DNA of 64,000 nt from an uncultured bacterium (GTDB taxonomy: Bacteria; Armatimonadota; Hebobacteria; CAIYQO01), in contig CAYYJR010000017.1 of assembly GCA_964472305.1 (NCBI GenBank), forward strand, positions 27,975 through 91,974, given 5' to 3'. Positions 22,665 through 29,116 of this stretch are shown here, in pieces. The notes beneath the pieces were generated by a model. That model was not told where the DNA came from. It saw only the letters and a list, made by a program, of their open reading frames with translations, and did not search any database. The translations under genes were made by a program, and so were the position numbers. The stretch's first letter is position 1, and each line of letters begins with the position of its first letter.

Positions 22665-23990
22665 TTACTCGACCGTTTCGCCTGCCAGCGCTTTCGACAT
22701 GCGCATCGAGCAGAATTTCGGTCCACACATGGAGCAGTAATCGGTGCTGCAGTTCAGGCCGAGGGTTGCGGCGCGGTATTCGCGGGCACGGTCGGGATCG
22801 AGAGCGAGGGCGAACTGTGCCTCCCAGTCGAAGGCGAAACGCGCGCGTGCCATGGCGTCGTCGCGGTCACGGGCGCCGGGCAAGCCACGTGCCACATCGG
22901 CAACGTGGGCGGCAAGCTTGGCGGCGATGATGCCCTGGCGCACGTCCTCCGCGTCGGGCAAGCCCAGGTGCTCCTTCGGCGTCACGTAGCAGATCATCGA
23001 CGCGCCATACATGCCGGCCAGCGCGCCGCCGATGGCGGTGGTGATATGGTCGTAGCCGGGCGCGATGTCGGTAACCAGCGGGCCAAGCACGTAGAAGGGC
23101 GCGCCGTGACACAGCTCGTGCTCCAGCTCCATGTTGCGTTGAATCTGGTCCATCGGCACGTGGCCCGGGCCTTCGATCATCACCTGCACGTCCTGCGCCC
23201 ACGCCTGCTGCGCCAGCTCGCCCAGCACCTTCAATTCGGCGAATTGCGCGTCGTCGCTGGCATCGTGCAGACAGCCGGGACGCAGCCCGTCACCCAGGCT
23301 GAGCGTCACGTCGTAGCGCCGACAGATCGCCAGCAAATCATCAAAGCGCTCGTACAATGGATTTTGCCGACCATGATGCTGCATCCACTGCGCCATCAGC
23401 GCCCCGCCGCGCGAGACGATCTTCGTCAGTCGCGACTCGACCATCGGCACGAACTCACGCAGCACGCCGACGTGCACGGTCATATAATCCACGCCTTGCT
23501 GCGCCTGGCGCTCGATGACGCCCAGCAAATCGTCGGCGGTCAGATCGAGTGCGCTCTCTACTCCCTCCACCGCTTCGTAGATGGGCACGGTGCCGACAGG
23601 GATGGGCGCGTGGCGGATGATCGCCTCGCGGAGGGTGTGAATCTGCCCGCCGGTGGAAAGATCCATCACCGTGTCGGCGCCGTAGCGCAGGCACACCGCC
23701 AGTTTGGCCAGCTCTTCTTCGGTGCTGCTGGACAGCGCGGAGTTGCCGATGTTGGCGTTAATCTTACAGCGCACCGCGCGGCCTACCGCCGCCGGCTCCA
23801 GCTCAGGGTGATGAATGTTGGCGGGAATGACCAGGCGACCGGCAGCCAGTTCATCGCGGATCAGTTCGGGAGGGAGAGATTCACGAGCGGCCACGAAGGC
23901 CATCTCTTCGGTGATGCGTCCCTGGCGCGCGTAATGCATCTGGGTGACGACGCCGGACCGGCCTCGCACCCAGCTTGTGCGTGGTGACAT
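22665..23990 (-). CDS. thiC: Phosphomethylpyrimidine synthase ThiC
   Basis: [26 protein letters not shown] and the C-terminal Fe-S motif [11 protein letters not shown]. Start ATG 23990 is preceded by AAGGAG. The track ORF extends to GTG 24098, inside the riboswitch expression platform. Confidence 0.92.
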
Positions 23991-24126
23991 GTGGCGGTGC
24001 GCTCCTTTCGATAATGTTGGCCTCAACTGCCGCCGCGCACCCGTTGGCGAACCCGTACCCTGAACGCCGGCGCGCGACCGCTGTGACTGCTGAGCCACGG
24101 TGGGAAGACACGGAGAGGAGATGTCT

Positions 24127-24212
24127 GCACGTCCCTACGCCGGCATGACCCGGATCAGGTGCGGAGGGTCTCCCGACAGGTCGGGACTCTCAGCCAACGG
24201 CTCCCCTCGTGC
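24127..24212 (-). promoter_or_regulatory. TPP (THI-box) riboswitch in the thiC leader
   Basis: Minus-strand read: GCACGAGGGGAGCCGTTGGCTGAGAGTCCCGACCTGTCGGGAGACCCTCCGCACCTGATCCGGGTCATGCCGGCGTAGGGACGTGC. It contains the GGGGAGC...CTGAGA...ACCTGATCCGG.TCATGCCGGCGTAGGGA core with P1 GCACG/CGTGC. A downstream CUCCUCUCC could mask the AAGGAG SD. Confidence 0.9.
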
Positions 24213-24222
24213 TTCCGCTTGC

Positions 24223-25928: not shown

Positions 25929-26052
25929 GATGCTCCCCAGGGTGAAATTACGACAACGTATTTTACCACGGACGGCCGAATTTCCCCTGCCGCCCCGGTT
26001 TTGCCCATTTGACAGCGCAGGCGCATCCGGCTATAATCTCTCCGTCAAATCC

Positions 26053-26127
26053 GGGCGCTTAGTTCAGTAGTAGAACACCTCGTTGACACCGAGGAGGTCA
26101 TAGGTGCGATCCCTATAGCGCCCACCA
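26053..26127 (+). tRNA. tRNA-Val (anticodon GAC), CCA encoded
   Basis: Cloverleaf folded by hand: acceptor GGGCGCT/AGCGCCC, D stem GTTC/GAAC, anticodon arm CCTCG-TTGACAC-CGAGG, T arm ATAGG-TGCGATC-CCTAT, discriminator A plus CCA. The T-loop reads TGC (G at position 55), not TTC. Confidence 0.9.
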
Positions 26128-26241: not shown

Positions 26242-26742
26242 CTATCGCCGCCGTTTCTTGCCCGCCTGTTCGCGTGCGTCCCGCGCCTGCTGCAGCTTGC
26301 GCGGTTCGGTGCGCATGTTAATCGGGTCAAGGGCGATGGCACGCTCGTAAGCGGCGATCGCGTCGTCATACTGCGCGTGCACCATGTAGGCGTCGCCCAG
26401 CGCGGCATGGGCGGCGGCGTTGTTCGCGTCACGCTCCAACAGGCGCCGGCAGCGGATGATATCCTCCGACGCCATCGCCTTCCGGGTGTTCCGCTCGTGG
26501 TAAATCCCCAGCAACGGCGTGAATGCGATGAAGAGCAGGAACAGCACGGAGTAAGCCAGTCCGAGAAACGGCGCCCCGGTGGCGAGGATGAAGAAAATCA
26601 CCCCGTGCGCGGCCAGCGCGCTGAGGGCCAGCGGCGTGCTTAGCAGGCGATCCTCCAGCCATACGCGGAGCAACCAGACCAGCGGCACAATAAGGCCCAG
26701 TGACAACAGGCCGATGACGAGCAGCAGACTTCCGGTGATCAA
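26242..26742 (-). CDS. Small membrane protein with C-terminal TPR-like repeat
   Basis: Three TM helices (ITGSLLLVIGLLSLGLIVPLVWLL...) then AHAALGDAYMVHAQYDDAIAAYERAIALDP (TPR). Start is uncertain. TTG 26742 (AAGGA 9 nt upstream) is preferred because longer versions (ATG 26877, track 27015) would overlap the thrS promoter and leader. Confidence 0.5.
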   Translation of the reverse strand: MITGSLLLVIGLLSLGLIVPLVWLLRVWLEDRLLSTPLALSALAAHGVIFFILATGAPFLGLAYSVLFLLFIAFTPLLGIYHERNTRKAMASEDIIRCRRLLERDANNAAAHAALGDAYMVHAQYDDAIAAYERAIALDPINMRTEPRKLQQARDAREQAGKKRRR

Positions 26743-26821
26743 CGTCCGTGTTCCTTGCAAAGGGAGTCTCTTGACTATACGGGCGGCGGCGGGAACTGTC
26801 AAATCGCACGACACGGCGTAT

Positions 26822-26850
26822 TTGACAAGCAGGCAGGCGGGCCCTATACT
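26822..26850 (+). promoter_or_regulatory. Near-consensus sigma-70 promoter for the thrS leader
   Basis: TTGACA-N17-TATACT. Predicted TSS is near 26856-26858, about 155 nt upstream of the thrS ATG. Confidence 0.7.
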
Positions 26851-26901
26851 TTGTACGTGATAAATGGTCGCAGGCATGCTGCCCGCTGTGAGGCTGAGCT
26901 C

Positions 26902-26925
26902 GTGACGACTACCCGGAGACGATAG
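26902..26925 (+). CDS. Candidate thrS leader peptide M-T-T-T-R-R-R (GTG start); a longer in-frame version could start at GTG 26857
   Basis: GTG ACG ACT ACC CGG AGA CGA TAG. GAGG lies 8 nt upstream of the GTG. Three consecutive Thr codons sit immediately 5' of the antiterminator arm. Confidence 0.35.
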   Translation: MTTTRRR

Positions 26926-26956
26926 CGCGCATCCGGGATTTTGCCCTGTCAATACC

Positions 26957-26987
26957 AAACCCCTCCCGGATGCGGAGGGGTTTTTTT
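26957..26987 (+). terminator. Intrinsic terminator (attenuator) inside the thrS leader
   Basis: AAACCCCTCC-CGGATGC-GGAGGGGTTTTTTT ends 27 nt before the thrS ATG. An 11-bp alternative helix (26928-26938 CGCATCCGGGA with 26964-26974 TCCCGGATGCG) excludes the terminator stem. Confidence 0.75.
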
Positions 26988-27013
26988 GTGCTGATTTTTG
27001 AACGGAGGTATCC

Positions 27014-28954
<1,941 letters not shown>

Positions 28955-29015: not shown

Positions 29016-29116
29016 GCAACACGTGGAAATGGACTTCCACGTGTTGCACCCCGCGTCCTGCCAACGACGGGGCCACCGCCACCAGGAACCTGGCAAAAGC
29101 GGAATCACATGGTGAA
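29016..29116 (+). repeat. Intergenic structured repeat, copy B (similar to 5810..5903)
   Basis: Perfect 13-bp hairpin GCAACACGTGGAA-ATGGAC-TTCCACGTGTTGC 62 nt after the thrS stop, a second hairpin CCCCGCGTC...GACGGGG, CCAGG-AAC-CTGG, then AAAAGCGGAATCACATGGTG. Confidence 0.7.

Follow-up and report, generated by a model that had tools for sequence, protein, structure and literature searches.

How is the threonine-tRNA ligase gene thrS controlled in an uncultured member of the Armatimonadota? The question is raised by a 64-kb stretch of DNA (hereafter the window) from a metagenome-assembled genome (MAG) of such a bacterium, in which region 26500-27300 contains a promoter, a short leader open reading frame (ORF) with three consecutive Thr codons, and a set of competing helices upstream of thrS. 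These elements probably constitute (with a probability of about 0.8, judged from sequence) a ribosome-mediated, threonine-responsive transcription attenuator of the classical type. The promoter, the reading frames and the gene are arranged as follows (nt, nucleotides; aa, amino acids):

26822..26850, plus strand: sigma-70-type promoter, TTGACA (26822-26827), 17-nt spacer and TATACT (26845-26850); 11/12 in the promoter scan
26857..26925, plus strand: long version of the leader ORF, GTG start, 22 codons and a stop, M-I-N-G-R-R-H-A-A-R-C-E-A-E-L-V-T-T-T-R-R-R
26890..26898, plus strand: invariant block GAGGCTGAG, Glu-Ala-Glu in the leader frame, containing GAGG (26890-26893)
26902..26904, plus strand: internal alternative start GTG, in the same frame as 26857, opening a 7-codon ORF, M-T-T-T-R-R-R
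26905..26913, plus strand: proposed regulatory codons ACG ACT ACC (Thr-Thr-Thr), recognized from sequence and conservation
26923..26925, plus strand: leader stop TAG, within the 1:2 hairpin loop
27004..27008, plus strand: Shine-Dalgarno (SD) sequence GGAGG of thrS, 5 nt 5' of the ATG and outside all leader helices
27014..28954, plus strand: thrS, threonine-tRNA ligase of 646 aa (TIGR00418, 725 bits against a cut-off of 384)

GTG 26857 lies 6 nt 3' of the -10 box; because the start codon is so near, the leader mRNA of the window is predicted to be leaderless or nearly so. GAGG is SD-like and located 8 nt 5' of GTG 26902, and the Arg codons CGG AGA CGA (26914-26922) directly follow the Thr run. 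The promoter, the end of the ORF (three Thr codons, three Arg codons and TAG), the GAGG spacing and the in-frame GTG 26857 had been reported in an earlier note on this DNA and are present in the sequence as described there. The same note recognized two helices that compete for the transcript, which is correct but incomplete: a third, the 1:2 hairpin, had escaped it. The pairing regions are the following:

26912..26921, plus strand: region 1, CCCGGA (26912-26917) and CG (26920-26921), partner of region 2
26928..26938, plus strand: region 2, CGCATCCGGGA, pairing alternatively with region 1 or region 3
26964..26974, plus strand: region 3, TCCCGGATGCG, overlapping the 5' arm and loop of the terminator
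26957..26987, plus strand: intrinsic terminator (regions 3:4), hairpin AAACCCCTCC / GGAGGGGTTT at 26957-26983, 10 pairs in the terminator scan, T7 at 26981-26987

The 2:3 antiterminator is a perfect 11-bp helix between 26928-26938 and 26964-26974 (-20.3 kcal/mol, z = -2.86 against dinucleotide shuffles). It is mutually exclusive with the 3:4 terminator (-16.7 kcal/mol, z = -3.09), whose core pairs CCCCTCC (26960-26966) with GGAGGGG (26974-26980) before the T7 run. The 1:2 hairpin (26912-26937; -13.5 kcal/mol, z = -3.15) is formed by CCCGGA (26912-26917) and UCCGGG (26932-26937), with two inner pairs between 26920-21 and 26928-29. Each helix thus stands at a z of about -3, and the antiterminator is the stronger of the two competitors when they are folded separately. 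The entire 141-nt leader, folded as a single molecule, has an unremarkable energy (z = -0.82), since the helices compete with one another. The 1:2 / 2:3 / 3:4 set is complete, as in a classical attenuator. Strong terminators consisting of a hairpin and a U-run are encountered only twice in the window, in the thrS leader and after an ORF at ~1334.

The strongest evidence against a chance arrangement is the conservation of the whole in 12 related loci. The leaders compared (L161-L164, L166, and L168-L174; L165 and L167 are duplicates and were left out) come from Armatimonadota contigs encoding ThrS proteins 67-87% identical to that of the window, and were obtained by exact-protein look-up of the encoding contigs; together with the window they make up 13 leaders. 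The closest threonyl-tRNA synthetase (ThrRS) proteins all belong to Armatimonadota MAGs (~35 protein clusters at 67-87% identity), and the next group is ~63% identical, 581 aa long, and devoid of the N-terminal 65 residues. ThrS-guided scans of genome and metagenome contigs were swamped by universally conserved ThrRS peptides, giving relatives at most 62% identical and one 5'-truncated Armatimonadota contig (L001).

All 13 leaders contain, in this order, the block GAGGCTGAG, a variable codon, GT[GA], three Thr codons, an in-frame stop, and a hairpin with a U-run. A promoter, TTGACA-N17/18-TATA[AC]T, occupies the same relative site in each of the 12 relatives. The Thr run, which keeps one frame throughout, reads T-T-T in 11 leaders and T-Q-T-T in L168 and L169; its codons vary in third positions only (ACG/ACC/ACT, then ACT, then ACC/ACT/ACA). 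The stop codon invariably follows 3-4 codons past the run, and the 5' arm of the antiterminator begins 1-5 nt 3' of it. An alignment of relatives had been proposed in the earlier note, and both the in-frame Thr run and the hairpins proved to be kept in 13/13 leaders.

The competing structures are maintained as well. The minimum-energy fold of all 13 leaders includes the 1:2 hairpin, whose loop contains the stop codon and whose inner pairs show covariation (GCG/CGC, CGG/CCG, GGC/GCC, GCGAU/AUCGC, CAAU/GUUG, and GCU/AGU). In L168 and L169 all helix sequences (CCCGGA / CAUCCGGG / CCCGGAUG) are replaced, and the same three mutually exclusive pairings are kept:

L168 helices: CCUGUAUA / UAUACAGGAG / CUCCUGU.UAU / ACAGGAGC
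L169 helices: CCAGUAUA / UAUACUAGGGGAG / ACUCCCGUA, the third arm including ACUCCC

A terminator hairpin of -13 to -24 kcal/mol, followed by U6-U8, is present in 13/13 leaders. The duplex energies of 1:2 and 2:3 rank within the top 0.1-8% of 1000 random 20-nt windows of the same locus in every leader. The effect of the ribosome was modelled with leaders cut just before region 4 and masked to 16 nt 3' of the first P-site base. With the ribosome on the Thr codons, the 2:3 antiterminator forms at -11 to -16 kcal/mol in 13/13 leaders; with the ribosome at the stop codon, 2:3 is lost in 13/13 and only -1 to -6 kcal/mol remain. The proposal that the position of the ribosome selects between antiterminator and terminator is thus supported in silico by comparative evidence and constrained folds alike. 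A covariance model built from the leader alignment retrieves 13/13 leaders, with scores of 50-93 bits. It detects no further copy in the 64-kb window, where the best other match reaches 12.8 bits (E = 0.5). Covariation, likewise called for in the earlier note, is detectable: in the Infernal alignment, 10 pairs are changed on both sides, a number reached by 0/500 shuffles, and the covariation score is 0.239 versus 0.172 in shuffles. Both MAFFT and Infernal alignments mis-register terminators of unequal stem length and hence understate structure; more weight is therefore placed on the per-sequence constrained folds and duplex-energy nulls than on formal covariation. A pairing of GAGG with CCUC of the terminator 5' arm was also considered and rejected: it comprises 3-4 bp only and is not conserved (CCUU in L162, L163, and L164).

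Which of the candidate starts serves the leader ORF? An in-frame ATG is located 6-9 nt past the -10 box in 10/12 relatives, and with its equivalent in the window, GTG 26857, a promoter-proximal start is present in 11/13 leaders. The resulting ORFs have 18-23 codons and the form M-x(6-10)-E-A-E-x-V-T-T-T-x(3-4), with an unconserved N-terminal sequence. The distance from the promoter-proximal start to GAGGCTGAG is 21, 24, 30, or 33 nt, each a multiple of 3, and stop codons within the conserved block close the other two frames (TGA in GCTGAG for one, TGA or TAA in GT[GA]A for the other). The position of GTG 26902 is occupied by GTG in 9/13 leaders and by GTA in four (L166, L174, L171, and L172), a synonymous Val change in the long ORF. 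All four GTA leaders have a leaderless ATG, and L162 and L164, the two that lack an in-frame start near the promoter, have the SD-led GTG, so that at least one plausible in-frame start leads onto the Thr codons in 13/13 leaders. Because GTG is GTA in four relatives, the 7-codon SD-led ORF cannot be the universal leader and is rejected in that role; the Thr run and the frame given in the earlier note hold in all 13 leaders, whereas its 7-codon version does not. The true leader ORF is most likely the 18-23-codon version, with GTG 26857 as the probable start in the window. The restriction of Thr and Val variation to wobble positions and the spacing by multiples of 3 are signs that the ORF is translated. 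A mini-ORF in the +1 frame (NTG AGG CTG AGN NNN TGA, M-R-L-S-x) was rejected, as a start-like codon is found in only 9/12 distinct leaders; it is taken as a by-product of the conserved block.

The observed sequence elements, their conservation and the in silico dependence of the alternative folds on ribosome position are consistent with the following course of events. Transcription would start ~7 nt past TATACT, near 26857, and the leader ORF would be read from the 5'-terminal GTG 26857, from the SD-led GTG 26902, or from both, in one shared frame. When Thr-tRNA-Thr is plentiful, the ribosome would reach the stop codon TAG (26923-26925) and mask the 5' part of region 2 (26928-26938); the 3:4 terminator would then form and the polymerase would halt at U7, 26 nt before thrS, leaving a transcript of ~125-130 nt. 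When Thr-tRNA-Thr is scarce, due to threonine starvation or too little ThrRS, the ribosome would stall on ACG-ACT-ACC and cover region 1. Region 2, being free, could pair with region 3 in the 11-bp antiterminator before region 4 is made, resulting in read-through into thrS. If the leader were not translated at all, both the 1:2 hairpin and the 3:4 terminator would be expected to form. Since the level of ThrRS itself sets the charging of tRNA-Thr, such a circuit would constitute a homeostatic loop. The sequence features expected of an attenuator are found together, i.e., a start near the promoter, cognate codons in the distal part of the ORF, a terminator, mutually exclusive helices and, in silico, the appropriate geometry.

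Several points weigh against this mechanism. All functional steps, from the start of transcription through translation of the ORF to termination and the threonine response, are deduced from sequence, and the organisms are uncultured and represented by MAGs. The predicted leaderless start of the window is GTG, which initiates leaderless translation only weakly in E. coli, and literature searches gave nothing on this mode of translation in Armatimonadota. The sensor comprises three Thr codons, few in comparison with the eight of enterobacterial thrL, although two Trp codons are enough for E. coli trpL. The invariance of GAGGCTGAG and ACT at the nucleotide level indicates that part of the coding-like conservation reflects a constraint on RNA or DNA, and another sensor could bind at these sites. 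Formal support from covariation is modest, as the available sequences are few and related to one another and the terminators are out of register in the automatic alignment (only 70-81% of the cells are paired in the two multi-pair helices). Finally, the full leader at equilibrium prefers the terminator in 12/13 cases, even with the ribosome on the Thr codons; therefore the decision must be kinetic, as in other attenuators, with 2:3 formed before region 4 is made.

Expression of thrS appears to depend on read-through past the leader terminator. The distance from the terminator to the thrS ATG ranges from 18 to 199 nt among the leaders and is at most 27 nt in 9/13; in the window, 26 nt separate the end of the T-run (26987) from the ATG (27014). 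No second promoter-like site was found in the three long spacers (147-199 nt; L162, L163, and L170). As the distance between the terminator and the ribosome-binding site varies so widely and the thrS SD is never part of a leader helix in the 13 leaders, control is exerted on transcription and not on translation. The same observations bear on the idea that the leader is an independent gene for a small protein or small RNA, located upstream of thrS by chance, with thrS expressed from elsewhere or by leak-through. Such a gene would account for the strong promoter and strong terminator that the unit owns and for the conserved peptide core E-A-E-x-V-T-T-T, and terminated attenuator RNAs can act in trans, rnTrpL being an example (PMC6614838). 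It is nevertheless very unlikely: the short spacers leave no room for another promoter, the long ones lack a promoter-like site too, and a plain terminator would have no use for a conserved helix that competes with it. The neighbour genes of thrS, moreover, differ among the loci, and the unit stays with thrS everywhere.

Two of the long-spacer relatives contain tandem heptamers GATTG[CT][GA] directly 3' of the terminator (L162 2347-2380 and L163 2338-2375), and L161 has a near-perfect inverted repeat with arms of >50 bp upstream of the promoter (~2150-2290). Both look like inserted repeat elements.

The amino acid sensed by the putative attenuator might be less specific than proposed, the leader reporting general translation stress or several amino acids (Thr and Arg in the window). 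AGA (2%) and CGA (6%), which follow CGG after the Thr run, are rare Arg codons, and the coordinates indicate that a ribosome stalled at CGG would leave region 2 free. The codons past the Thr run, however, vary among the leaders (RRR, RWR, RTG, RRP, PGP, NRKL, WKR, RRQ, GTP, CIK, and SIF), only the Thr codons are common to 13/13, and the regulated gene is thrS. The Arg run, which the earlier note had listed after the Thr codons, is consequently rejected as a co-signal: it is not conserved and arises as a by-product of region 1, the pairing of which (CCCGG) accounts for CGG. A sensor of this broader kind is quite unlikely.

The block GAGGCTGAG shows another type of constraint. It is identical in 13/13 leaders, without any synonymous variation and also where no GTG follows, and the motif occurs once in the 64-kb window. 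Among the genes of the window, Ala is encoded least often by GCT (6%), and GAA and GAG are equally frequent; the middle Thr codon, ACT, is fixed in 11/13 leaders and is the rarest Thr codon (8%). As GAGGCTGAG and ACT are invariant despite the rare codons, a function at the RNA or DNA level overlaps the coding function. The candidates for the role of GAGGCTGAG include an internal SD-like site, a pause signal, a factor-binding site and a trans-acting seed; its resemblance to an ops element or a consensus pause element is too slight to support an argument, and both were rejected.

One tentative reading, with the odds clearly against it, is that GAGGCUGAG, together with GU[G/A]AC and the rare ACU, forms a second functional layer beyond those of classical attenuators. 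As an internal anti-SD-binding site, GAGGCUGAG could retain the translating ribosome while the Val and Thr codons, 8-11 nt further on, occupy its P and A sites; if so, three codons would be enough for a sharp response. Binding of ThrRS or another factor to it is a further option, as is a role as the seed of a terminated leader RNA that acts in trans. Such a layer, if real, would together with leaderless initiation define a mechanistically distinct attenuator subtype specific to a clade of Armatimonadota.

In a rival reading, the ORF would be incidental: in place of the ribosome, a trans-acting sensor (ThrRS, uncharged tRNA-Thr or another protein) would bind the invariant GAGGCUGAG...GU(G/A)AC and decide between antiterminator and terminator. 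The lack of synonymous variation in the 9-mer, in spite of the rarity of GCT and ACT, is in line with this, as is its invariance even where its would-be SD target GTG is GTA; besides, E. coli ThrRS autoregulates through its own leader. Against a directly bound tRNA, the Rfam search found no T-box, and the antiterminator is a perfect helix that lacks the bulge used to bind the acceptor end of the tRNA. There is no conserved anticodon-like hairpin either: CUCGUGA of the window corresponds to CACGUGA, AACGUGA, or AAGUAAC in relatives, with no flanking stem. Such a sensor would also leave unexplained the wobble-only Thr variation, the start distances in multiples of 3 and the fixed stop before region 2, and is considered unlikely.

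Known RNA families were searched with Rfam 15, at the gathering score for the window and permissively (E <= 10) for 26600-27200. At the gathering score, the only matches in the window are a thiamine pyrophosphate (TPP) riboswitch and tRNA-Val. The T-box (RF00230) has no match in the window at the gathering score or at E <= 10, nor in the 11 related loci scanned; as a positive control, it was detected with 105 bits on the distant thrS of L083. The Thr_leader family (RF00506) has no match in 26600-27200 even at E <= 10, and the only match there, Leu_leader, reaches 22.9 bits against a gathering score of 50, mostly from the terminator. An operator of the E. coli type, for which a hairpin with a loop like the tRNA-Thr anticodon (UNGU) would be expected just 5' of the thrS SD, was not recognized: there is no hairpin in 26988-27013 (26 nt) and no conserved stem around CGU 26901-26903. 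An anticodon-arm mimic at CUCGUGA was rejected, since no stem is conserved there and a base other than U occupies position 33 in relatives. The absence of a T-box and of an operator mimic, asserted in the earlier note, thus holds for the window, and no Rfam match to a T-box appears in the 11 related loci.

More distant thrS leaders are of other kinds. A sister clade of ThrS (581 aa, ~60-62% identical; L081 ~2420-2500 and L082 ~700-790) has no attenuator. Its 5' untranslated region includes a short hairpin, CAACGCC-GUUCGUA(C/A)A-GGCGUUG, ~9 nt upstream of the SD, with a loop (UUCGUA) that resembles the anticodon loop of tRNA-Thr(CGU) and the E. coli thrS operator loop CUUUCGUGUG. This hairpin may represent a translational operator resembling that of E. 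coli, in a phylum far removed from it. In L083, whose ThrS is 59% identical, a genuine T-box leader (RF00230, 105 bits) precedes thrS at 2082-2369. Within ~60% identity, ThrS relatives would therefore display three leader types, i.e., the attenuator, a possible anticodon mimic and the T-box. In a Chthonomonadaceae MAG (L012, ~2760-2990), the thrS leader has a terminator, GCGCCGCCTTC...GGAAGGCGGCG-T5, with competing GGGCGGCGC helices; its 25-codon ORF has only two separated Thr codons, and the geometry misfits the classical scheme.

The arrangement has counterparts among known systems. In E. coli pheST (pheM), a synthetase operon is likewise preceded by a short leader ORF with cognate codons and by competing helices, with feedback through tRNA charging. 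The pheST leader senses Phe codons in an SD-led ORF of 14 codons, whereas the thrS leader is probably leaderless, has 18-23 codons and the additional invariant GAGGCUGAG, belongs to another phylum and shares no sequence similarity. Enterobacterial thrL (RF00506) also relies on Thr codons in a leader peptide to control an intrinsic terminator, with 8 Thr and 4 Ile codons, but acts on the biosynthetic thrABC operon instead of a synthetase. The T-boxes of Bacillota thrS genes follow the same logic, uncharged tRNA-Thr causing read-through of a leader terminator; they differ in binding the tRNA directly and in their ~220-290-nt leaders, as compared with ~130 nt here, where specifier loop and T-box sequence are missing. 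In E. coli, the thrS operator also lies in the 5' leader of the gene but is translational, with ThrRS bound beside the SD; the window has only 26 unstructured nt between the terminator and the ATG.

The pheST attenuator of gamma-proteobacteria serves as the model, and classical attenuators were reported for trpS and leuS in Streptomyces (PMC1262725). Leader-peptide attenuators are also known or predicted on hisS paralogues in bacilli (PMC2965389), and RNA-seq of S. lividans points to leader peptides of alaS, thrS, trpS, and leuS (PMC8079986). In that organism, thrL precedes thrS and encodes a leaderless peptide, MKRVRPFLETTPGFVPAR, with adjacent Thr codons near its distal part; according to its authors, the Thr codons number only two and a clear U-rich terminator is missing (PMC8079986). 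The regulated gene and the leaderless short ORF with distal Thr codons are thus the same as here. The present leaders, from Armatimonadota as opposed to Actinomycetota, have three Thr codons, the full 1:2 / 2:3 / 3:4 set and U6-U8. The S. lividans peptide shares at most E..TT with E-A-E-x-V-T-T-T, and the resemblance, judged from the peptide alone, is functional. The earlier note considered a leader-peptide attenuator on thrS to be unusual; the gene is indeed an unusual one for this control, but the case is less unprecedented than supposed in view of S. lividans thrL and of Streptomyces trpS and leuS.

In the literature searched, no such regulation was described in Armatimonadota, nor any thrS leader-peptide case besides that of S. 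lividans. The type of switch is known, and the thrS leader represents an unusually clear case in a little-studied phylum instead of a new principle. It adds a comparatively supported example of amino-acid-specific attenuation on an aminoacyl-tRNA synthetase gene in Armatimonadota, suitable as a solid annotation and a good experimental model. The control of thrS has evolved several solutions (translational operator, T-box and attenuator), among which related Armatimonadota lineages seem to differ. The compact family (~130 nt, 18-23 codons) could join RNA family databases and thereby improve the annotation of MAGs, while the GAGGCUGAG block and the probable leaderless start bear on how a three-codon sensor gains sensitivity.

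The surroundings of the leader in the window comprise other regulatory elements. The TPP riboswitch (Rfam, 73.5 bits) at 24115-24217 on the minus strand is located upstream of thiC (22665-24098, minus strand), an ordinary arrangement. The gene of tRNA-Val(GAC) at 26053-26127 on the plus strand has its own 12/12 promoter, TTGACA-17-TATAAT (26009-26037). A divergent promoter, TTGACA-17-TATAGT (26774-26802, minus strand), lies back-to-back with that of the leader and presumably drives an unannotated membrane-protein-like ORF without an NCBIfam match (26429-26809, minus strand). Downstream, 63 nt past the thrS stop, a 13-bp perfect hairpin without a U-run, GCAACACGTGGAA-ATGGAC-TTCCACGTGTTGC (29017-29048, plus strand), may constitute the 3' end of the thrS transcript or a processing structure.

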